Positions 13,671 through 63,299 of a stretch of 64,000 nucleotides of DNA are shown here, in pieces. The position numbers and the translations under genes are program-made. Source of the DNA: Pseudomonadota bacterium (GTDB lineage Bacteria; Bdellovibrionota; Bdellovibrionia; Bdellovibrionales; Bdellovibrionaceae); assembly GCA_041178425.1 (NCBI GenBank), contig JBEGVH010000014.1:64001-128000 (forward strand), written 5' to 3'. Each line of letters starts with the position of its first letter. Within the stretch, counting starts at the first letter, position 1. The notes below the pieces were generated by a model. That model was not told the DNA's origin and ran no database searches. It was given only the letters and a program-made list of their open reading frames with translations.

Positions 13671-14465
13671 TTAAAAATCAGAAACCTGATCCACAAGAGA
13701 GGCATCATCAATAAAGGGATTTCTATTTCCCTGGTTTTCAAAAATAATTTGATGTCGGTTTTCTTCGGCCTGATCAACAGGATCTTCGTGGTGCCATTTT
13801 CTTAAGAACCCTTCTTCATCGCTATCAATATGTATTTTATAACGAGTTGAAAAGTAGAAGAGCGACCTTGCCACATTCCCTCTGTGTTCTGGTGGAGGCT
13901 CGAAACGAAACCCTATCGCGGTGTTTGCAAAACGCGACGTCGCACACTTTATTCGCTCTGTGGGCCCAGAGAGTTCAGCGAACTTATAATTTCCACGAGT
14001 GGAATTCATTTCAGAATCTGTGGGGTAAAGATGATGCAAATCTGATTTTTGCATCTCATTTGGAAACGCACCTGTGAAACGGCTTTGAGGCCAGGTATGC
14101 TCAGTATTTAAAACAGTTCCATCGGGTATTTTCTCCGGACCAAGATTTGCGGATCCACGAAAATCACGGTTTGTAAAATGACGAAGGCAATAAACATCTT
14201 TTACAGCGTACTCACCACTCAGCTGTTCAAGGTGAATTCGGCCAAGAAGGATTTGTCTTGCTCGATGATATCCGAGCACTCTTTGACCTCTAGATGCGGC
14301 CTCGTAGAGATGATCTGGAATCGTTCCAGTTTTTCCATACGAACGATAGTCTGAGCGAGCACCGTAACTTTCGTAATACTCAGATCCCCATATTGGATTT
14401 TCAAAAGCCGCTGAAGAAAAACTAATTCCTGTAACTAGAAAAAAGACTCCCAACAAAGAACGCAC
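13671..14465 (-). CDS. Secreted endonuclease I (EndA-type)
   Basis: NTEHTWPQS, SDLHHLYP, RGNVAR and GNRNPFID motifs; signal peptide; GTG start with GGGGG SD. Confidence 0.95.
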   Translation of the reverse strand: MRSLLGVFFLVTGISFSSAAFENPIWGSEYYESYGARSDYRSYGKTGTIPDHLYEAASRGQRVLGYHRARQILLGRIHLEQLSGEYAVKDVYCLRHFTNRDFRGSANLGPEKIPDGTVLNTEHTWPQSRFTGAFPNEMQKSDLHHLYPTDSEMNSTRGNYKFAELSGPTERIKCATSRFANTAIGFRFEPPPEHRGNVARSLFYFSTRYKIHIDSDEEGFLRKWHHEDPVDQAEENRHQIIFENQGNRNPFIDDASLVDQVSDF

Positions 14466-14762
14466 TCGACAACCCCCCGTTATCCTTAAGTTCTCTTAAC
14501 TCTTTTCTGATCTCGCGCGCAAGCTCTCAAATAAAAATTAACATGTCAAATCTGAATAATATTTTTTTAATTTAGAATAAAGGCGTCAAAAGCTTTCTTT
14601 TAAGGCCTAGACCAACGTCCCGCGAATCCCTTTGCTGGTGCCGGGTTCAGCTCTCTTGCCCTATCAAAACTTTCCGTTTTTCGATCCAAATATCTGATTT
14701 TTTTAAAATTTTAGCCACTTTAGACTACAGATTGAAGGCATTTTTTCCGAAGTGGAATCATT

Positions 14763-15536
14763 ATGTTTGCTAACAACTCCCTTCCTCACCCCTCGATCAA
14801 GCCACTGAATTATTTATTGTGGTCCATTTTGGCTTTTCAAGCGGGAACGATCAACGTAGGGGGATTTTTAGCCTGCCATCGGTTTGTGACCCACGTCACA
14901 GGCTTTGCCACTCACTTTGGAGTGGACGTTGCTTCGGGATCTATAGTGAGTGCCTTATCGATGGCTCTTGTCCCTCTCTTTTTTCTCCTAGGCTCCATGG
15001 CCTCAGCCCTCTTAATTGATAAAAGGAAGTATCTGGGAAAAGAGCCACATTATACCGTCACTTTCACATTTTCTGGAATTAGCTTTTTAACATTAACCAT
15101 CGCCGGGCAACTTGGAACCTTTGGCGCGTTTGCCAACTCGTCTAGCTCTCTTACGAATTTTATGATTTTAGCAATACTTTCTTTTCTGAGCGGTATTCAA
15201 AATGGTATGATTGGTTTTACGTCGGGCCTCCTCGTACGAACCACCCATCTGACGGGAATAACCACCGACTTGGGAGTTGGCCTTATGCGTGTTAGTTACC
15301 CCAACATATCAATACAGCAAAAACAGTTCGAATTTAAAATGAATCTTTTGAGAATTGGAACGATTGCGTCCTTTATTGTTGGATCAACCGTCGGTGGACT
15401 TGTCTTTTTTCGTTTTGAGTATTTGGGATTTCTGATTCCTTCCTTTATCTGTCTCTTCCTTGCTGGTTACAGTTGGAATGTTCTCCGAATCCAACCAGTG
15501 AGCTCACAATCAAGAAAGGTTGGAGTGGCCGAATGA
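14763..15536 (+). CDS. YoaK/DUF1275 family membrane protein
   Basis: FVTHVTG, GIQNG and VRTTHLTGITTDLG motifs; multiple TM helices. Confidence 0.92.
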   Translation: MFANNSLPHPSIKPLNYLLWSILAFQAGTINVGGFLACHRFVTHVTGFATHFGVDVASGSIVSALSMALVPLFFLLGSMASALLIDKRKYLGKEPHYTVTFTFSGISFLTLTIAGQLGTFGAFANSSSSLTNFMILAILSFLSGIQNGMIGFTSGLLVRTTHLTGITTDLGVGLMRVSYPNISIQQKQFEFKMNLLRIGTIASFIVGSTVGGLVFFRFEYLGFLIPSFICLFLAGYSWNVLRIQPVSSQSRKVGVAE

Positions 15537-54699: not shown

Positions 54700-54816
54700 T
54701 TTTCACTGAGAGCGAAGAGGCCTCTTATCACCCATTTTATTGCCATTTTTAGAAGCCTCCCAGAGACTTAGAGAACACTGCGCATCAGTGTGATCTTAAG
54801 TCTATGGGAGTTTAAC

Positions 54817-55848
54817 GTGGTGCTTCGAACTTTGTTATTGTTTGTTGTTTTATCGATTTGCCTGGGTTGTTCCACGCTAACACCAAAGCAAGAAGAGGAG
54901 CTTTTGTACTGGCAAGAGCAAGGTGTCTATGTTCAAAAGCAAGACGCTAAAAAAGCCTGGCAACTCAATTATTTCATGGGGGCTGGCGATTTTTATCTGG
55001 GCCACTATGATTATGGTTTTTTAAATTTAATCACCTGGCCATGGTCAATGATCTGGGCTCCAAAGGCCGCCGCCAATCGCGCATTCAAAACAAATTGGGA
55101 AGCCACAAAGCTCGCCTTAGGCGACAGATACCTAACTCTGCGTCCTCCTCCCTCTCCAAAAGAGAGCGATGAAAACAACGAAGAGGAACAACCTATAATG
55201 CAAAGGATTAAGAAGGCCTTTCGCGAACGGCGAATCTCCGAGGAAAGAAAAAAGCGGATACTCGAAATTTCTTTGGTACCTGTAGACACGAGTTTACTTT
55301 ACGATGGAGGTCCAATTCCTCAAGGTTGGAGGGGTGTTCTTTATTTTCGAGGTCAACATGGTCTCCTTCATGAAACATATAGTTCGGGCCTGAGCGATTT
55401 TGCCTCTTCAATCTCCGGGATTGTACAAATTGGCCCCGAAGAAGATCGCAAACATATTTCTGGTGAACAGAGCCATTGGGCCTACAGATATTTTCTTCAT
55501 GACAATTGGTTTATACAAGCCGGATACAAAGAACGAGTGGTCTCCTATTCTTATACGGCCTGTTTTGAAGGAAGCTGTTATCGAACGATCGACGAGGCCA
55601 ATTGGACGGCCAAGCTAAAGATGGCAGTAGCCGCTATCGGTTACCAAGCCTTTAGTGGCAAACATTCAAAGTGGGTGTCCGGGGTAGAATTCCATTTGAA
55701 TACGGTCCAAAAGACAGAAATGCTAGAAGATCGTTATTCACGCAGTCGAAGCGGCGAAAGCCCTACACTAACTAAAAGTGAAGAGGCAAAGAAGCAATTT
55801 CTAGATTCATATGGGGACTTAATTTTTCACATTGGTTATTTGTTCTAA
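54817..55848 (+). CDS. Lipoprotein with a TM2-like hairpin and a probable C-terminal beta-barrel
   Basis: GGGAG SD with GTG 54817, lipobox CLGC, GAGDFYLGHY..GFLNL, C-terminal FHIGYLF. Confidence 0.6.
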   Translation: MVLRTLLLFVVLSICLGCSTLTPKQEEELLYWQEQGVYVQKQDAKKAWQLNYFMGAGDFYLGHYDYGFLNLITWPWSMIWAPKAAANRAFKTNWEATKLALGDRYLTLRPPPSPKESDENNEEEQPIMQRIKKAFRERRISEERKKRILEISLVPVDTSLLYDGGPIPQGWRGVLYFRGQHGLLHETYSSGLSDFASSISGIVQIGPEEDRKHISGEQSHWAYRYFLHDNWFIQAGYKERVVSYSYTACFEGSCYRTIDEANWTAKLKMAVAAIGYQAFSGKHSKWVSGVEFHLNTVQKTEMLEDRYSRSRSGESPTLTKSEEAKKQFLDSYGDLIFHIGYLF

Positions 55849-55862
55849 ATCTAATCCGAACA

Positions 55863-56654
55863 TTACTCAATGACTTCAATAGAATCTGTCTCGGCTACCA
55901 CGCCCTCATTTTGAGGGATCCACAAAGTACCGAAAAAAACTTTGTTCTCTTTTTGACGGTAGCTACTCAGCGTTTTTAAGGGTTCTGGCCCACTGGCCAA
56001 CCCCGTGGTTTGATCGATCGTAATCACATGACATCGCTGACACAATTTGGGGTTGGCAAACTCAACCTGACCAATGCGAATGCGACGCCACTGTTCTTCT
56101 TCAAAAGCCTCTGCTCCCGAAAACACAATATTTGGTCGAAAGCGATCGTAAGAGACTGACTGCTCTAATCGCCCATTCAAATCCTCAAGACTTTTTAGAT
56201 TTAAGATCTGTATAGGCCGCTGATCAGCAAATCGAACCTCGGGCTGCCAACCAGGGTTATCGGATTTTAGCCTTCGGTTTGTGGTGGGCATATGCCGAAC
56301 AAGCCTGCAGGAAACCTCAAGGTATTGAGAGATCGCCTGCGAATAAAGATCCGGCTCAAGAGCGACCTCAAAAGGAGAATCCCAAAGAGTGGCAATGACT
56401 TTTCGTTGGAAGGAATTCTTTTTGGAAATCTTAAAAAACATCTTTTGAAAGGCTACGGTGAGACTCTCCTCTTCGAGAAAAACTTCGATAGTGGCCATTT
56501 TTGGAAGTCGTCTCTGGGATAAAAATTGACCTTCTTGATCGATCAGCATCCATTCGCGATCACCCGCTGGGCCAAGGTGACTGATGCTTAATAGTTTAGT
56601 TTTTTGCGCACTCGCCGACTTGATGGGATAGATGTAAAGATCTTTGATATTCAT
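55863..56654 (-). CDS. MOSC domain protein (YcbX-like)
   Basis: LYIYPIKS, DREWM, RFAD, RFRPNIV and CQRC motifs. Confidence 0.95.
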   Translation of the reverse strand: MNIKDLYIYPIKSASAQKTKLLSISHLGPAGDREWMLIDQEGQFLSQRRLPKMATIEVFLEEESLTVAFQKMFFKISKKNSFQRKVIATLWDSPFEVALEPDLYSQAISQYLEVSCRLVRHMPTTNRRLKSDNPGWQPEVRFADQRPIQILNLKSLEDLNGRLEQSVSYDRFRPNIVFSGAEAFEEEQWRRIRIGQVEFANPKLCQRCHVITIDQTTGLASGPEPLKTLSSYRQKENKVFFGTLWIPQNEGVVAETDSIEVIE

Positions 56655-56702: not shown

Positions 56703-58652
56703 TTAAAAATAGTAATAAACACCAAGAGCACCTCTTGCCTCTGAGGACTCGGCGGTCTTGCTAAGTCGCGCTTCAAACAACCAACGATCATCCTTACCCG
56801 CCAAAAGGGTTTGCGCCAGGGCCCAAGTCAGTCGTTGGGTTTTTCGTGGCTCAAGAATAGCCTCATTGAGGCCCTCAAAAACAAAATTAGACTTTGGCGA
56901 AGTGGCCCATCGTAAACCTAACACCGGCCCCACACTCAAAAAGAGGTTCTCCGCTCTTGTCGATACCATTGTGTGACTCACCTTTCCCTGAAATAGAGTA
57001 TAAGCAATAAGGCCAGAAATCGGTGTCGATTCAAATTTATAAGTGGCTCCTACCGCCGATCTCAAAAAAGCAGGGGCACCCACGAGGGAAATTTCAGGTT
57101 CACGCTCCCATCCAAATGACACTCGCCAACTCGGACTCACATCCAAGCGATTGATTGGAGACAAAGACGTAATTCCAACCAGGTGAAACTTTTCTAACAA
57201 TAGATTTTTACTCAAAGCCCGATCATGAATCCAGCCGAGTGAGAAAAAATCAATCTGAGCGTAATCAGGATAGCCCGCAATTGGATCAAGAAAATCGTGA
57301 AGCGCAAATCGCCAAAAAAATTCAGTTCTCTCTTTTTCACTAATCCGCAGGCCTCCCCGTCCGGACGGATGGGCCTTATCAGGGGATACGTCTAAAGGTG
57401 CAATTATTTTAAGTGGCAAAGCCGCTGGCAATTCGCTCCGCTCTAGAAGCCAATTATTTTTTTCAACAACCCGAGAACCCGAACGTTCAAGTAAAAGCTC
57501 ATTAGCAAATTTGTAGTCGTAATAATCGAGACCAGCATCAAGAACTCGCGCAAGCTCCTGGGGGTTTAAGGTTCCCCGCCAAGACTGATCGTCGCCACGC
57601 CATTTGTTGAAACTTTTAAACTCTTCATCGGTGAGTAAAGAAACCCTCTCTTTCAACTGGCGATAAACCGAGGGCCGGTAAATAATGTTGTCGATCAATC
57701 CAGGCGTTTCCGACAGGGGCTTAATCGTCTCGCCAGGTATGATCCAAAATGGCAGTTTTTCGACTAAACTCAAACGTGGCGCTGCGACTTCGAGCAGCGT
57801 TAGCATGTGATAGGAACAGTTTTCGGTAATATAATAATAATCGAAGGTTGTAAACGAAAGCTCCCACAGATGATCAACGAGCCGCTCAACCTCTTGGTCG
57901 GTTAAGGCTAAATCATATTCCCAAAGATCTCTCGACTCGTAGTCGTTATATTCACGAACCTTGTAATAATAAGGAATAACCGTAAAGGTACCAGGAAAGC
58001 CTCCAGCCATTCCCAACACTGCATACAGAAAAGGATTCTTCGTCGTCGCATTGGCAGCGTAATTAACACCGATATCTAAAAGCTCGGTCGATTTTTCATT
58101 TCGTTCCGAATGTTTTTGCCGATTCAACCGCAACAGAGAGTGACCGAAGGTCGAAGAGGGGTTGTTCATATAATACGACGAAAAAACAAGTGTCACCGAG
58201 CGAGCACGAAGTCTTTGCACGAATTTTTTATATTCAGCACACTCACCATCAATCGAAAGATCTAAATCGAATCGGTTTTTGAGCTGTTCTTTGAGCCACT
58301 TCGCCCTTGCTGGAAACTGACAAAGTGCCGACAACTCCACTTTTTCTTGGGTCAGCGGCACGTGAAGAGTTCTTTTTTTTGGAGCTTGCAATGCAACCAG
58401 TGTGGCCTTGAGCTCATTCAGCGGCGAGCTCTTACCGTCGCTTGCTAAAAAAAATTGGGCGTCGTCGGCCTGACTTTCTGTATGATTACTAAAAAGGGGG
58501 TCTTTATAATGCAAAAGCCGATGCCAATAAGGATCTCTCGAAAGTGATTGCAATTGATTGGAACTGAGCTCGATGGAGAAGACATTAGCAGAGTAGCCGA
58601 AAAACAAACCGTAAATCAGAAAGCGCCAAACTATAAAAAACATAGAACGCAA
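56703..58652 (-). CDS. DUF4105 (Lnb N-terminal-like) Cys-His enzyme domain fused to a probable C-terminal outer-membrane barrel
   Basis: WHRLLHY, CQFPAR..WL, PSSTFGHSLLR, YNDYESRDLWEY, YYYITENCSY and YRPS motifs; RFALHDFLD; aromatic C-terminus YYYF. Confidence 0.9.
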   Translation of the reverse strand: MRSMFFIVWRFLIYGLFFGYSANVFSIELSSNQLQSLSRDPYWHRLLHYKDPLFSNHTESQADDAQFFLASDGKSSPLNELKATLVALQAPKKRTLHVPLTQEKVELSALCQFPARAKWLKEQLKNRFDLDLSIDGECAEYKKFVQRLRARSVTLVFSSYYMNNPSSTFGHSLLRLNRQKHSERNEKSTELLDIGVNYAANATTKNPFLYAVLGMAGGFPGTFTVIPYYYKVREYNDYESRDLWEYDLALTDQEVERLVDHLWELSFTTFDYYYITENCSYHMLTLLEVAAPRLSLVEKLPFWIIPGETIKPLSETPGLIDNIIYRPSVYRQLKERVSLLTDEEFKSFNKWRGDDQSWRGTLNPQELARVLDAGLDYYDYKFANELLLERSGSRVVEKNNWLLERSELPAALPLKIIAPLDVSPDKAHPSGRGGLRISEKERTEFFWRFALHDFLDPIAGYPDYAQIDFFSLGWIHDRALSKNLLLEKFHLVGITSLSPINRLDVSPSWRVSFGWEREPEISLVGAPAFLRSAVGATYKFESTPISGLIAYTLFQGKVSHTMVSTRAENLFLSVGPVLGLRWATSPKSNFVFEGLNEAILEPRKTQRLTWALAQTLLAGKDDRWLFEARLSKTAESSEARGALGVYYYF

Positions 58653-58698
58653 GACTACTTGATTTCATCTTGCTTTCCAAACAATTTCGAAATCCGAA

Positions 58699-59160
58699 TT
58701 AACCTTGGCAGCCTTCGCTTGCCGCTTGATTCGCCTTCAAAACAGATCGAACTTCTTTACTGATATGAGTAGAATCATTGGTGCCGTTTTGATAGATCTT
58801 CTTATAATTATTTTTCAAAAGACCATGAACTTTCATTGGATTTGAACAGTTCAAAACCTGTGTTAATCCTGTAAGAGTTTGTCCTTGTCCTCTCGCCATG
58901 TCATTCGCTAAGGCCTCAGGATTGGCCTCGATGTAATTTTCGAGCTTTGCAACTCCAGAAACTTCCACACAGTTTGACGTCCCAGAAGAAATTCCAAACG
59001 TCTGTGTATGAGAGGTACCATTGCTTGTGAAAGCAAAAATTTGATTTTCGTTACCAAACATTACATTACCAAGTCCGCACCCAGCAGGTCCAACCGGTTT
59101 TCGGGCATGGGCCAGAGAGGTAACAACAAGAGCAACAGCAACTAAAAATAATTTATTCAT
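58699..59160 (-). CDS. DUF3015 family secreted protein
   Basis: GPAGCGLG, TFGISSGTSNC and DMARGQGQTL motifs; signal peptide; AAGGAG SD. Confidence 0.92.
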   Translation of the reverse strand: MNKLFLVAVALVVTSLAHARKPVGPAGCGLGNVMFGNENQIFAFTSNGTSHTQTFGISSGTSNCVEVSGVAKLENYIEANPEALANDMARGQGQTLTGLTQVLNCSNPMKVHGLLKNNYKKIYQNGTNDSTHISKEVRSVLKANQAASEGCQG

Positions 59161-59176
59161 TTAATAACTCCTTCAA

Positions 59177-59686
59177 TTATGAATTCTGGCAATCTAATTT
59201 TTTGTTCTGTTCAATCACTTTCATGATCTGACGACTTGATTCATACGAATTTTCGTTTTTCATGAAAATCTCTGAGAAGTTTTGATGAATTACTTCTTCA
59301 AAGCCGGATTGATTGCGGCAGTTGAAAATGCCAGCCAAATCTTGTAGTGTTTCACCCTGGCCACGAGCTGCTTCTTTTTTTAACGTCTCTCTGTTGATTT
59401 CAATGTATGAAACAGCTTCCATACCCATCTCTGAGATGTCACAGTTCGAAGTACCAAAAGAAATACCAATAGCTTGATTGCTATAAATGTCATTTGAAGT
59501 GGCAGCAACGATCTGTATCATCCCTGGTTTGGCGCCAAAAATCACACTCCCAAGACCACATCCAGCGAGACCGTAACCTCCGCCGGTGAGTTGGTCGTGA
59601 ATTGACTTCTTTCTACCGTCCGCCATGCTCGCGCTACTGAACGCAGATACTAATAGTGCTGTCGCAATTAAAACCATTTTTTTCAT
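59177..59686 (-). CDS. DUF3015 family secreted protein (second paralogue)
   Basis: YGLAGCGLGS, GISFGTSNC and EAARGQGETL motifs. AAGGAG SD before ATG 59686. Confidence 0.92.
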   Translation of the reverse strand: MKKMVLIATALLVSAFSSASMADGRKKSIHDQLTGGGYGLAGCGLGSVIFGAKPGMIQIVAATSNDIYSNQAIGISFGTSNCDISEMGMEAVSYIEINRETLKKEAARGQGETLQDLAGIFNCRNQSGFEEVIHQNFSEIFMKNENSYESSRQIMKVIEQNKKLDCQNS

Positions 59687-59796
59687 TGAAGCTCCTTCTT
59701 CGCAGTGTTTTGGTTTTTTATTCGTAATGACTCTATAAGAGCAAAAAGGCGATACTCCGACAAGTTTTAAAAATTCCAGAACTAAAAATAGATAAA

Positions 59797-60708
59797 CTAA
59801 TTTAACCAGCCCGCACTCTCCCGAAAACATGCGCCACACTGGATGGCTCTCTCTATCAATTCAACAAACGGTTTTCTATTCTGCCCACCCTTCTTAAAAA
59901 GAAAATCGGTATGCCGGCCGTTCTCAATTTTTACGAACACCTTTGGCTCCGCGCATCTATCAAAAAGACGCTGACCCATCGAGTAACTCACAACCGGGTC
60001 AGCGGTTCCATGCACCACCAATATCGGTGTCGGCGATAGACTTTTTAGCTCCGATTCTGGCGACTGACTATTGTCGACGATTACCCAGGCCAGCGGTTGA
60101 AGCAGCCATGTGAGCCAATGCTTCGAGAGGGTGTCGGCGGCTACTCTCTTGTAATCCGAAAAGCTCGAATCAATCACAATCAAACGAAGCGATTTTTCTA
60201 GTTCGGTAGCCCTATTTGTTTTTTTTAATTCAACCAAAGACTTCATCGCAATGGCTCCTCCCAAACTTTGCCCAAAAACAATCAGCGGCACCTCAGGCTC
60301 TTGTTCGAGCATCCACTTTAAAGCCGCCAGACCGTCTTCGGTGGTCCCCATTGGCGAAGGCTCCCCTTTAGAGAGCCCATAACCCCTGTAATCGAAAATA
60401 AAATAATCAAATTGATGATGTAGCAGAAAGTAGAGACTTGCGAAGTGAGTTGAAATATTCTGAGCGTTTCCATGAAAAAAAAGAATTTTAGCCTTCGCTT
60501 TTTCCGGCTTCTTTTTTGAACTGTCATCGTGGCGAAAATACCAACCATGAAGCTTTACCCCATCCTTGGTTTCAAAAAAAATATCTTCAGGTTTCAATGG
60601 CAAGTGCTGAGGATCAGCGTATTGGTTCTGATGGGGGTAATAAAAAAAACTACTGCAGCCGCAAAGGCAAAAGAGAATCCAAATGATGATTAGCTTTATA
60701 AAACCCAA
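59797..60708 (-). CDS. Lipoprotein alpha/beta hydrolase
   Basis: Lipobox LCGC followed by SSFFYYP; FFHGNAQN, FDYRGYG, GQSLG, HGTAD and GRH motifs. Confidence 0.93.
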   Translation of the reverse strand: MGFIKLIIIWILFCLCGCSSFFYYPHQNQYADPQHLPLKPEDIFFETKDGVKLHGWYFRHDDSSKKKPEKAKAKILFFHGNAQNISTHFASLYFLLHHQFDYFIFDYRGYGLSKGEPSPMGTTEDGLAALKWMLEQEPEVPLIVFGQSLGGAIAMKSLVELKKTNRATELEKSLRLIVIDSSFSDYKRVAADTLSKHWLTWLLQPLAWVIVDNSQSPESELKSLSPTPILVVHGTADPVVSYSMGQRLFDRCAEPKVFVKIENGRHTDFLFKKGGQNRKPFVELIERAIQCGACFRESAGWLN

Positions 60709-60757: not shown

Positions 60758-61135
60758 TTAGATTGGGCTCGTTGAACATCGGCCCCATAGTTCTTTCAAC
60801 ACAGGTATGCGTGGATTAATTAGTTTTGAATTACCTTTTTCGGAATCGGTGCCATAAATAATCAATTCGAGATTATTGTCGGGACTCTCTTTTGACAGCC
60901 AAACATGAAGCACTTCATCTGAAGCACAAAACTCTTGAGTGATAGTTTCTAGTGACTCTCGCCCTTGAAAAACAATTTTTGCAAAATCGTCCGTCTTTCC
61001 GTTTCGCACCATCAAGTGAACATCGGCGAATGGGGCTCCGTACATGGAATAGGAGCAGTGATACTCTAGTTGCTCAATTGAAAAAGATTGAAAACAAAAC
61101 AAAAAAAGAAACACACCCACTAATCTGGCCGGCAT
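60758..61135 (-). CDS. Small secreted hypothetical protein
   Basis: Signal peptide, AAGGGG SD, Cys near both the N- and C-termini. Confidence 0.65.
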   Translation of the reverse strand: MPARLVGVFLFLFCFQSFSIEQLEYHCSYSMYGAPFADVHLMVRNGKTDDFAKIVFQGRESLETITQEFCASDEVLHVWLSKESPDNNLELIIYGTDSEKGNSKLINPRIPVLKELWGRCSTSPI

Positions 61136-61265: not shown

Positions 61266-63068
61266 CTATTTCACCCAAATCCGATGAAGAGTATTGCTTC
61301 CGTAAGAACCCTGATAGTCGTCGCATTCCCATCGTGAACCAGCACCGCGAACAGCCCAATGATAATTATTCCCGCGATAAAATGGGAAAGCTGTCATCGC
61401 CTCATTACCTTGACTCGTCCAATATCCGTCAAGAGTCGGAGGTGTGTTTGCAGAGTGGCTAGTCAGAGTTGTGTAACTGGAATTGAGATTACTACAACTT
61501 TGGCTATTTCCTGTTTTGAAGTAGGTAGAGCAATTGGCGTCTGAGGTTTTGAAATGAACCACTCGAGCATGGTTGGATGTTTGACAATAAAATCGCATCG
61601 ATGAAAACAAGAGTCTATTCAGCAATGAGGGAGCCGCGTGCCCCCAGGTTGTGGTACTTGCTGACTCATCTGTTCCAAGGCTACTGAGACCGAGGCGCGG
61701 AAACACCGTCGTGCTGGGATTAGTTGCTGGGTTCGTATTGCCTGCATGAAGATAATTAAGAACGAGCGTCCAGCCACCTCCATCGGTGGTTTGATCGCAA
61801 TAGACAAGCACATCGCCCAGGCCATTAAGATTGATTGTGTAAAGTCCACTTGCGGTAAATCCACGCGATCGCCAATCAGCACAAGATGCAGGTATAATAC
61901 TGTATTGTATTAACACCGCACCAGAACCACCTCGCCCACCTGAAGTCCCTGCGATATTAGTATTCCATCGCGAACCACCGCCGCCGCCTCCGGTTCCATC
62001 AACGCCGATGGTGGCATCTAAACCATTAGTGGTTCCATCGTAATCATTTCCACCGTTACCACCACCACCAGTACCACCGCGACCATGGCGAGTACCAGAG
62101 GAATCAGTGTAGATCTGGCCACCACCTCCGCCAGCAAACCAACCCGAAGCTCCGACGCTGGTTCCAAAACGCGCGCTCATATCGATTCCTGCGCCGCCAT
62201 CGCCGCCACCATCAGAACCTCGAATGCCATCGGTGCCAGACTTCCAATTCCCACCAACAGCACCAGCTCCACCGCCTCCCGCAGAAGCATGATTGGGCGC
62301 AGAGCCCGCTGTATCGGGTTTGCCGGTTCCTCCTGTGCGACCATAAACAGTTGCCCCACTATAACTTACTTGCGTGGAAGAACCGCCCGATGCAGCGGGT
62401 GCGCTATTGGAGTGTGACCCGCCGCCACCCGATCCGCCGGAATTTCCGGCCTGCCCAGCAGCCGTCGATGCGTTTCTCGAACCACCCCCGCCTCCGCCTT
62501 TACCGGTATAGCCACTGAAAACTGAATCACTGCCGTTAGTACCATTAGTTCCGCCGGTATTCGATCCTGCTCCGCCACCACCCACTGTCACAGAGTAGGC
62601 CTGAGTGGATAAACCAACGCCAGGAATATAAACAACACCACCGCCTCCACCGCCGCCGCCGAAACGTCCACCACCGCCACCGCCCCCGACGACGAGAGCC
62701 TCAACATTTCCAGTTCCAGTGGTGACGGTAAAGGTTCCATTACTGGTAAACTTGTGTTGTTTAATTCCGTTTGTCGTCGCCTCAGTGCCACCACTGGCAG
62801 CAAAACAAAGCCCGATAGAGACACCTGACGGGGGTGAACCCGCAAAGGACGTCCATTCGCCCGAACTATTTGTTGGAATAAATATGGCGAGCCCACTGGC
62901 GTGATTATTGGCAACTGTTCGACAGGTTGCATACTCGGTGATTTGCCTAGTCTCACCAGCGATTACTTTATAAGAGGTCGCCGCACGAACCGATGGTTTT
63001 AAAAAGAGCACTACCATCGCAAATCCGAACCCAGCCAGGTAAAAGAAATTCTTGTAATTTTGCACCAC
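61266..63068 (-). CDS. Secreted glycine-rich domain plus fibrinogen-like domain protein
   Basis: AAGGAG SD with GTG 63068; HKFTSNGTF...LVVGGGGGGG...GGSGAVLIQY (glycine-rich domain); SC...SGLYTI...VYCDQTTDGGGWTLV. Confidence 0.85.
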   Translation of the reverse strand: MVQNYKNFFYLAGFGFAMVVLFLKPSVRAATSYKVIAGETRQITEYATCRTVANNHASGLAIFIPTNSSGEWTSFAGSPPSGVSIGLCFAASGGTEATTNGIKQHKFTSNGTFTVTTGTGNVEALVVGGGGGGGRFGGGGGGGGVVYIPGVGLSTQAYSVTVGGGGAGSNTGGTNGTNGSDSVFSGYTGKGGGGGGSRNASTAAGQAGNSGGSGGGGSHSNSAPAASGGSSTQVSYSGATVYGRTGGTGKPDTAGSAPNHASAGGGGAGAVGGNWKSGTDGIRGSDGGGDGGAGIDMSARFGTSVGASGWFAGGGGGQIYTDSSGTRHGRGGTGGGGNGGNDYDGTTNGLDATIGVDGTGGGGGGSRWNTNIAGTSGGRGGSGAVLIQYSIIPASCADWRSRGFTASGLYTINLNGLGDVLVYCDQTTDGGGWTLVLNYLHAGNTNPATNPSTTVFPRLGLSSLGTDESASTTTWGHAAPSLLNRLLFSSMRFYCQTSNHARVVHFKTSDANCSTYFKTGNSQSCSNLNSSYTTLTSHSANTPPTLDGYWTSQGNEAMTAFPFYRGNNYHWAVRGAGSRWECDDYQGSYGSNTLHRIWVK

Positions 63069-63299
63069 TTCATTCTCCTTGAAATGATCATTTCTTGCAA
63101 GAGCCATCTCTGAAGGCAGGCCATCTCCTTTCAAGGCCAGCAAGCCATCGGTCACCTCTAATCAATGCATTCCGCCTATTTATACCAGGACCTATTAACG
63201 GTTTTTTTACAAGGCCTTGCGCAGCTCCTCTTTGGGACTATTCTATTAGAGCTTCAGAATTTTAAAGAACTTTTTGAGTCTCAATTTTTAGGGGGATCT

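Follow-up and report, generated by a model that had tools for sequence, protein, structure and literature searches.

What does a gene cluster do that encodes, side by side, a lipoprotein hydrolase, two small DUF3015 proteins and an enzyme whose catalytic domain is fused to a predicted outer-membrane barrel? This question is raised by positions 56703..60708 of the window, i.e. of the whole stretch of 64,000 nucleotides from a Bdellovibrionota genome that was analysed here. Our answer, to which we give a probability of about 0.5, is that the cluster specifies a dedicated system at the outer membrane, which would attach fatty acids to the Ser/Thr-rich segments of exported proteins bearing a docking tag, a chemistry that we infer. 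The module as such is real, widespread and functionally unstudied, and it would be a variant not described before among dedicated acyl-transfer systems. It occurs in about half of the genomes sampled from the window's phylum and in about a tenth of those sampled from Pseudomonadota.

Four co-directional open reading frames (ORFs) of the minus strand were confirmed in this interval, with stop-to-start gaps of 110, 16 and 46 bases: the hydrolase (Hydrolase_4, 2.5e-20), the two DUF3015 paralogues and a 649-aa Lnb_N protein. In ORFs, motifs and coordinates this agrees with the original prediction, made from the DNA letters alone, of four genes with exported products (export was assigned by eye from the N-terminal sequences). 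The paralogues, which are 37% identical to each other, match Pfam DUF3015 (PF11220) at 3.9e-34 and 4.8e-33 (118 and 114.5 bits, cut-off 25). The 649-aa protein combines DUF7843 (1.5e-22), Lnb_N (2.7e-52; 177.3 bits, cut-off 22.2) and DUF7840 (8.2e-30), of which the first and the last had not been named in the original prediction. The host genome possesses a single gene for the barrel enzyme, a pair of DUF3015 genes and a single gene for this type of hydrolase (by tblastn), all at this locus. Shuffled sequences gave the same promoter and terminator counts; among the sites listed, none that resembles a terminator lies between the DUF3015 and enzyme genes, and an RNA holder was not listed either.

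The Cys-His domain that had been proposed for the 649-aa protein is recovered as the Lnb_N match together with the residues H168, N275 and C276, which are invariant in 118 aligned homologues (numbering of database record P0005, which begins at the ATG at 58643; P0005 residue numbers are ORF numbers minus 3). The FGH histidine (codon 58140-58142), the ENCSY cysteine (57816-57818) and the terminal YYYF were found where they had been placed (codons at about 58140 and 57816 for the first two); the asparagine codon is 57819-57821. DUF7843 carries the first of two invariant cysteines, which are likely a disulfide pair. Among 8000 scored candidates there are 2442 relatives of the enzyme, and most of the best 120 have the same architecture. 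In the structural model (mean predicted local distance difference test, pLDDT, 93) the C-terminus consists of 12 strands and, as foreseen, matches outer-membrane barrels, namely EstA (Z 14.2, root-mean-square deviation (rmsd) 4.1, 199 residues aligned), NanC (Z 13.9, rmsd 3.7, 178 aligned) and KdgM (Z 13.7, rmsd 3.5, 166 aligned). The terminal residue is F, Y or W in 100 of 120 homologues. Since an even number of strands puts the start of this predicted outer-membrane barrel on the side of the terminal Phe, the barrel start and the catalytic domain would both lie on the periplasmic side. In the whole-protein model, the catalytic part resembles TseH (Z 9.3, rmsd 3.8, 154 aligned) and YiiX (Z 7.7, rmsd 3.0, 133 aligned), both with middling scores. 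Sequence and profile searches of solved structures gave no relative of the enzyme. The barrel fold is shared with EstA, LpxR and OmpLA at 7-13% identity, and EstA likewise has an enzyme domain. However, these proteins act on lipids or esters and not on tagged proteins; the window enzyme does not match the Autotransporter Pfam domain, and in its model, unlike in autotransporters, no long helix leads from the helical domain to the first strand. PagP is another outer-membrane barrel enzyme to which it can be compared.

Lnb of Bacteroides is described as an Lnb_N lipoprotein N-acyltransferase of 398 aa with five predicted membrane helices, which acylates lipoproteins generally (PMC11573676). The window enzyme shares with Lnb the Lnb_N domain, the His-before-Cys order and the TseH-like fold, which the same source reports for Lnb; in contrast, it has 649 aa, a barrel in place of the membrane helices and dedicated neighbours, and its host keeps Lnt. 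The Lnb equivalog NF051878 scores it at only 13.7 bits (cut-off 550). It appears to work like a permuted NlpC/P60 acyl enzyme but is not a member of Lnb. We rejected it as a general replacement of Lnt, since the host encodes a full Lnt above the cut-off (228.8 bits, cut-off 132.9). The LnsA-LnsB system of Staphylococcus aureus is reported to comprise an exported permuted NlpC/P60 Cys-His acyltransferase with a phospholipid donor and a second protein (PMC13559823; see also PMC7387801). LnsB, however, is described there as a CPBP-family membrane protein and the substrates as ordinary Gram-positive lipoproteins, whereas the window system has a fused barrel anchor and small exported partners. Tox-Act1 and TseH (PMC12994826; PDB 6v98), the sister clade and the nearest solved catalytic fold of the enzyme, are given as secreted type VI toxins with immunity genes, whereas the window enzyme is barrel-anchored by its model.

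The three families had been expected to co-occur across phyla, and they do. Our locus set contained the best 80 of 567 confirmed loci, from at least eight phyla and with 37 of the 80 from Bdellovibrionota. Upstream sequence of more than 300 bases is available for 73 enzyme loci; 70 of these have DUF3015 there on the same strand, 23 of them in two copies, and one further locus has a DUF3015 fragment at the contig end. This clustering is far beyond chance. The hydrolase is found within the fetched flank in 34/80 loci, and clustering of all ORFs above 120 aa across the 80 loci yielded no other large recurring neighbour family. Apparent enzyme-DUF3015 fusions (L058, L077, L078, L158, L161) were discarded as overlaps from early start calls. 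At the level of genomes, which are related and not independent draws, DUF3015 is present in 80 of 151 genomes of the window's phylum, all among the 91 with DUF7840, and each of the 69 genomes with a strong hydrolase match has DUF7840 (68 also DUF3015). For Pseudomonadota (251 genomes) the corresponding numbers are 24 with DUF3015, all among 31 with DUF7840, and 15 out of 15 genomes with a strong hydrolase match that have both (nine hydrolase candidates per genome scored). Pooled over 402 genomes, the barrel is present in 104/104 DUF3015-bearing and 84/84 matching-hydrolase genomes. Neither of the computable outcomes that the original prediction had named as speaking against it, i.e. a lack of cross-genome co-occurrence and a C-terminus that is not a barrel, was observed. 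In the Pseudomonas-like genomes of L219, L220 and L221, the DUF3015 copies are remote from the enzyme gene and have radA or a probable glyA as their neighbour.

Conceivably, the enzyme acts as a peptidase, as a transpeptidase or as an exporter coupled to processing. It would then dock the tag of its partner, cut or cross-link within the N-terminal segment, and release a peptide or export it through the barrel. Its fold is papain-like, with TseH, a cysteine protease according to PMC11573676, as the nearest solved catalytic fold; the barrel resembles FapF and autotransporters; and the combination of a variable core with a conserved tag, described below, recalls to us the follower-peptide systems. 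However, the clients track the catalytic part and not the barrel, because nine of the 11 DUF3015-negative, barrel-positive genomes have the DUF7840 barrel alone (about 245-270 aa, no catalytic domain); the other two have one hit on a 1.6-kb contig and one divergent full enzyme. Moreover, enzymes linked to DUF2388 (see below) have no barrel family match, and the characterised Lnb_N member is presented as an acyltransferase (PMC11573676). We consider peptide processing or export improbable. The stand-alone DUF7840 barrels of L084-L092 have signal peptides, belong to one family of the window's phylum and occur without DUF3015.

That DUF3015 is a dedicated partner of the enzyme, as had been claimed, is indicated not only by its upstream position but also by the predicted complex. 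Modelled alone, DUF3015 has a confident helical domain (residues 70-143) after a low-confidence loop (17-67). The complex of the enzyme with DUF3015 paralogue 2 scored 0.82 (runs 0.77, 0.82 and 0.82), and the best of three controls 0.01; 116 of 157 solved complexes, but also 2 of 215 mismatched pairs, attained the score mark, and these counts apply only roughly, since author-made alignments were used. The runs share at least 42% of the contacts, and the pLDDT of the partner is at least 64. It is unlikely that the predictor reproduced an already solved structure, because no solved relative of the enzyme or of DUF3015 was found. Residues 64-65 and 76-128 of DUF3015 form the confident interface with residues 183-189, 224-234 and 365-410 of the enzyme, i.e. 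the helical domain of DUF3015 is predicted to dock on that of the enzyme, which supports binding. The dedicated partnership of the original prediction is supported by this; the GCG segment and the catalytic His and Cys, whose contact it had proposed to look for, are not among the confident contacts, nor is the Ser/Thr loop. Within the docking domain N80, G91 and G93 are invariant. No other part of the family is as conserved as the loop between Cys28 and Cys64, which in paralogue 2 contains 10 Ser/Thr in 37 residues; canonical DUF3015 proteins all have G27-C28-G29, and C28 co-occurs with the invariant C64. Fold searches with DUF3015 gave no significant match (Tai4 and Rap1a with Z 3.4-3.5 and Foldseek E above 2, which is background level), and a protein atlas search gave no usable match outside DUF3015. 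Blanks of this kind, including that for solved structures, are no proof of novelty.

Docking away from the catalytic residues would also suit an enzyme that remodels outer-membrane lipids as a phospholipase or transacylase. DUF3015 would then not be a substrate; it would dock as a cofactor, a regulator or an inhibitor, and its Ser/Thr-rich loop would gate the active site or the barrel. The sister clade Tox-Act1 and the LRAT and YiiX clades are reported to act on lipids (PMC12994826), and LnsA to depend on its second subunit LnsB (PMC13559823). Divergent tag carriers lie beside Rhs genes in the manner of immunity genes, and there are the weak, non-significant fold matches to Tai4 and Rap1a. A regulator would hardly be expected, however, to occur as many unrelated Ser/Thr-rich N-terminal segments on one tag, up to seven per genome, and lipid remodelling leaves unexplained both the polar Ser/Thr switch in the hairpins of enzyme-adjacent PEGA proteins and the DUF2388 parallel, which are described in the following. 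On balance it appears unlikely to us, though less so than the other alternatives.

The predicted docking surface follows the type of partner. At its seven test positions (those with at least 70% consensus, after enzymes under 420 residues had been dropped) the residue is kept at 0.86 in 113 enzymes with canonical partners, at 0.51 in 17 with WD-type DUF3015 and at 0.15 in 14 with a PEGA-type partner. Other regions of the PEGA-partner enzymes are kept at 0.43-0.48, and His, Asn and Cys at 100% in all partner groups.

Small PEGA-type lipoproteins are the neighbours of divergent full enzymes, in place of DUF3015. In a set of 80 metagenome loci, all ten divergent enzymes with room upstream have a PEGA-type neighbour and none has DUF3015; out of sample, in Pseudomonadota, such a partner is present at three of five DUF3015-negative enzyme loci (one is truncated and one has none; two further barrel matches below the cut-off are outside the five). 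In a quick tree that was made for 80 enzymes and includes 36 canonical ones, the enzymes partnered with DUF3015 fall into one starred group with a canonical and a WD subgroup, and the PEGA-partnered ones are placed outside it. The motif S-[TS]-T-D occurs in 16/16 enzyme-adjacent PEGA proteins versus 0/7 stand-alone copies, and the hairpin has a hydropathy of 0.56 with 3.6 Ser/Thr in the former versus 1.53 with 0.7 in the latter; the profile was built from enzyme-adjacent copies, and stand-alone ones are maybe under-sampled. The lipobox, in contrast, is the same in both groups. In four PEGA-type partners (L162, L168, L172, L176), the genes of which are divergent to that of the enzyme, the lipobox Cys is replaced by Ser. 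Six natural fusions of a PEGA lipoprotein with a DUF3015-like helical domain were found (L030:7857-8471; L190, L191, L193, L194, L195), of which five match the tag profile and three are beside an enzyme locus. An earlier alignment of A-T-T-N of DUF3015 with S-T-T-D of PEGA was dropped after the WD class suggested another register; neither is statistically established. Small exported proteins directly upstream of enzymes without DUF3015 or PEGA neighbours (L171:2216-2614, L066:5302-5874) are possible further partner families.

These partners bear on N-acylation of the Lnb type, either of a cysteine exposed by cleavage between AG and CG at the lipobox-like site of DUF3015, perhaps by the hydrolase, or of the diacylglyceryl-cysteine of lipoprotein clients. 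The invariant G27-C28-G29 would suit such a reaction, lipoproteins account for most of the PEGA partners and for several of the tag carriers, Lnb and LnsA are described as N-acylating cysteine (PMC11573676, PMC13559823), and Lnt adjoins the pair in epsilon-proteobacteria (PMC10318531). The pairing of C28 with the invariant C64, however, suggests a disulfide; the lipobox of four PEGA partners has Ser instead of Cys; it is the hairpin and not the lipobox that distinguishes PEGA proteins beside an enzyme from stand-alone ones; no such cysteine is present in the DUF2388 clients inspected; Lnt is encoded by the host; and the module can do without the hydrolase. N-acylation seems to us the least probable of the explanations weighed here.

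The reading as acylation of Ser/Thr-rich segments draws on what precedes the docking domain. A profile of this domain matched 2981 cluster representatives and 80/151 genomes of the window's phylum, which are the same as the DUF3015 genomes and all possess the barrel. What stands in front of this helical tag varies: it may be the Cys loop of the canonical type, the loop of the WD type, a lipoprotein tail containing Ser/Thr runs, a segment that is bounded by cysteines and encoded beside Rhs genes, a PEGA fusion or a tandem repeat, and there are up to seven carriers per genome. Across three classes, with 225, 22 and 34 sequences, Ser/Thr make up 0.26-0.30 of the 35 residues before the domain, versus 0.12-0.16 in the docking domain and 0.18 in 65 lipoprotein tethers of the host genome; 15/34 non-canonical and 55/225 canonical segments exceed the 90th percentile of the control. 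Since there are tag proteins without GCG and four PEGA partners with Ser at the lipobox, Ser/Thr richness and not cysteine is the common feature. Divergent DUF3015-like genes without GCG (L098:4063-4533 and 13967-14799; L099:3831-4271; L101:3623-4036; L100:3582-4040) are possibly immunity proteins or extra clients; in L098, L099 and L101 they stand next to Rhs-repeat genes whose products have a hydrophobic C-terminus. L224-L228 contain lipoproteins with a linker and a weak tag match, far from enzyme genes and without the Ser/Thr loop, and P0365, P0366 and P0371 are exported proteins with two or three tandem helical tags.

The arrangement of tag, Ser/Thr segment and Lnb_N enzyme recurs with different parts, as far as sequence tells. 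DUF2388 proteins, often encoded in tandem, consist of a signal peptide, a Ser/Thr-rich segment (mean 0.35 in 30 segments) and a helical domain, and Cys-His enzyme motifs lie within 1.5 kb of a DUF2388 copy in 11 of 12 genomes over the cut-off (L237, L239, L242, L243, L244, L256, L258, L261 and L263-L265 are such loci beside an Lnb_N enzyme). The three DUF2388-linked enzymes scanned are DUF7844-Lnb_N proteins without a barrel family match; their DUF7844 part has an HExxH-like motif. No homology of the DUF2388 helical domain to the DUF3015 tag was detectable, and a tie of DUF2388 to the barrel enzyme was rejected, as both are present in only 7/12 genomes. More tentatively, and with some doubt on our side, Lnb_N enzymes outside Bacteroidota might represent an unrecognised route of O-fatty-acylation of Ser/Thr runs on helical-tagged exported proteins (DUF3015, DUF2388 or PEGA), which for enzymes fused to a barrel would be located in the outer membrane, be reversible via the hydrolase and proceed without Lgt, Lnt or Lol.

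For the window system, acylation of Ser/Thr-rich segments could proceed as follows. The predicted barrel would carry the permuted NlpC/P60 Cys-His domain, as sequence and model suggest, and this presumably periplasmic domain might take a fatty acyl chain from a phospholipid of the inner leaflet onto its Cys, as LnsA, Lnb and LRAT do; by this analogy, the donor would be a phospholipid and the intermediate a thioester. DUF3015, exported via Sec, is predicted to bind the helical domain of the enzyme via its own helical domain, which would act as an address tag, a step that also has comparative support. The tag could then offer the adjoining Ser/Thr-rich segment to the active site, where its hydroxyls would be O-acylated and a polar hairpin turned into a membrane-anchoring one without Lgt, Lnt and Lol. 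Membrane insertion and oligomerisation of the modified clients are the simplest guess. Finally, the lipoprotein hydrolase might strip these esters again or clear the lysophospholipid by-product.

In the hydrolase S148, D237 and H266 are invariant and the lipobox C18 nearly so among 39 orthologues (codons 60265-60267 for Ser148 and 60655-60657 for Cys18). Among solved structures it is best matched by generic esterases and by monoglyceride lipases, and by its HGN motif it presumably resembles ABHD13/17-like protein deacylases; it may be a deacylase or a lysophospholipase. The original prediction had made it a member of the module. It does co-occur with the barrel, but since it is missing from 12/80 DUF3015 genomes of the window's phylum, it is an accessory member.

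Several observations, beside the missing active-site contacts in the complex model, weigh against Ser/Thr acylation. The characterised bacterial relatives covered by the cited sources are N-acyltransferases or lipid-targeting toxins, none of them described there as O-acylating a protein, and the Lnt and SecDF genes reported beside DUF4105-DUF3015 in epsilon-proteobacteria (PMC10318531) fit N-acylation equally. The interface test has only seven positions in a region that is poorly aligned in divergent enzymes. Partner type tracks enzyme phylogeny, so that the counts are not independent, and the enzyme-adjacent PEGA group needs two changes on its tree, with a single origin possible. Homology between the DUF3015 and PEGA hairpins is suggestive at most (hhalign probability 8%; 1.5%). 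Five PEGA fusions (0.21, p 0.09) and seven weak tag carriers are not clearly Ser/Thr-enriched before the tag, and a hydrophobic-[ST][ST]-G motif, which was defined post hoc, is lacking in the window's paralogue 1 and in 20/22 WD-type proteins. No partner lies near some of the enzymes (L048, L066, L110, L114, L128, L171, L210).

The adjacency of DUF4105 (now Lnb_N) and DUF3015 is already in print: the supplement of PMC10318531 (2023) reports it for epsilon- and gamma-proteobacteria, with a deep catalytic pocket and DUF2388 nearby, and leaves the function unknown. The relevant passages are silent on PEGA partners and on Ser/Thr-rich segments, on the hydrolase, and on any barrel or binding. New here are the docking surface, the exchange of DUF3015 for PEGA-type partners and the DUF2388 layout. 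DUF3015 also appears as a table entry in PMC13066512, and was not found in nine supplement files of PMC12994826. Literature searches, mostly without subscription papers, revealed no functional study of the module and no paper matching 'serine O-acylation'. The Aat system is reported to acylate CexE/Aap (PMC7943197). It shares with the proposed system a dedicated acyltransferase and a small Sec-exported client outside the Lgt pathway. AatD, in contrast, is said to be an inner-membrane Lnt homologue that acylates an N-terminal glycine and has its own secretion system. Known bacterial lipidation of exported proteins takes place at the inner membrane and at the N-terminus. If Ser/Thr O-acylation is true, the module would be categorically new: a tag-directed outer-membrane enzyme acting on internal Ser/Thr would add a lipidation pathway, assign a function to DUF3015, DUF7840, DUF7843, DUF2388 and DUF7844, and provide a portable protein-anchoring tag.

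Table 1. Positions in the window of the four genes and of their parts
Feature	Position	Strand	Basis and remarks
Lipoprotein alpha/beta-hydrolase (Hydrolase_4), 303 aa	59797..60708	-	Pfam; accessory member
DUF3015 paralogue 1, 169 aa from ATG after AAGGAG site	59177..59686	-	Pfam; signal peptide, helical domain
Cys43-Cys82 loop of DUF3015 paralogue 1	59441-59560	-	
DUF3015 paralogue 2, 153 aa	58699..59160	-	Pfam; partner used in complex model
Cys28-Cys64 loop of DUF3015 paralogue 2	58969..59079	-	Putative acyl acceptor
Helical docking domain of DUF3015 paralogue 2, about residues 70-143	58732..58953	-	Forms predicted interface
649-aa predicted outer-membrane enzyme, TTG start	56703..58652	-	Signal peptide, DUF7843, Lnb_N, helical domain, DUF7840 barrel
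DUF7843 domain, ORF residues 35-123	58284..58550	-	Pfam
Lnb_N (formerly DUF4105) permuted papain-like domain	57720..58232	-	Pfam, fold match
Enzyme helical domain, most of predicted DUF3015 docking surface	57414..57563	-	P0005 residues 365-410; L399, R402
Predicted 12-strand beta-barrel (DUF7840) ending in Phe	56706..57362	-	Pfam, model

On both sides the cluster is followed by genes of the same direction. A MOSC-domain gene (55863-56654, minus strand) lies 48 bases downstream of the enzyme, and a Pfam-negative exported protein of 125 aa (60758-61135, minus strand) is encoded 49 bases before the hydrolase; both were rejected as module members, as they are not found in other loci. Further away, 61266-63155 (minus strand) encodes a Gly-rich 629-aa protein with a fibrinogen C-terminal match and a G+C content of 0.55 versus 0.44 around it. 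On the plus strand, 54790-55848 encodes a lipobox protein of 352 aa that ends in Phe, has no Pfam match and contains a hydrophobic hairpin-like stretch in its N-terminal part.

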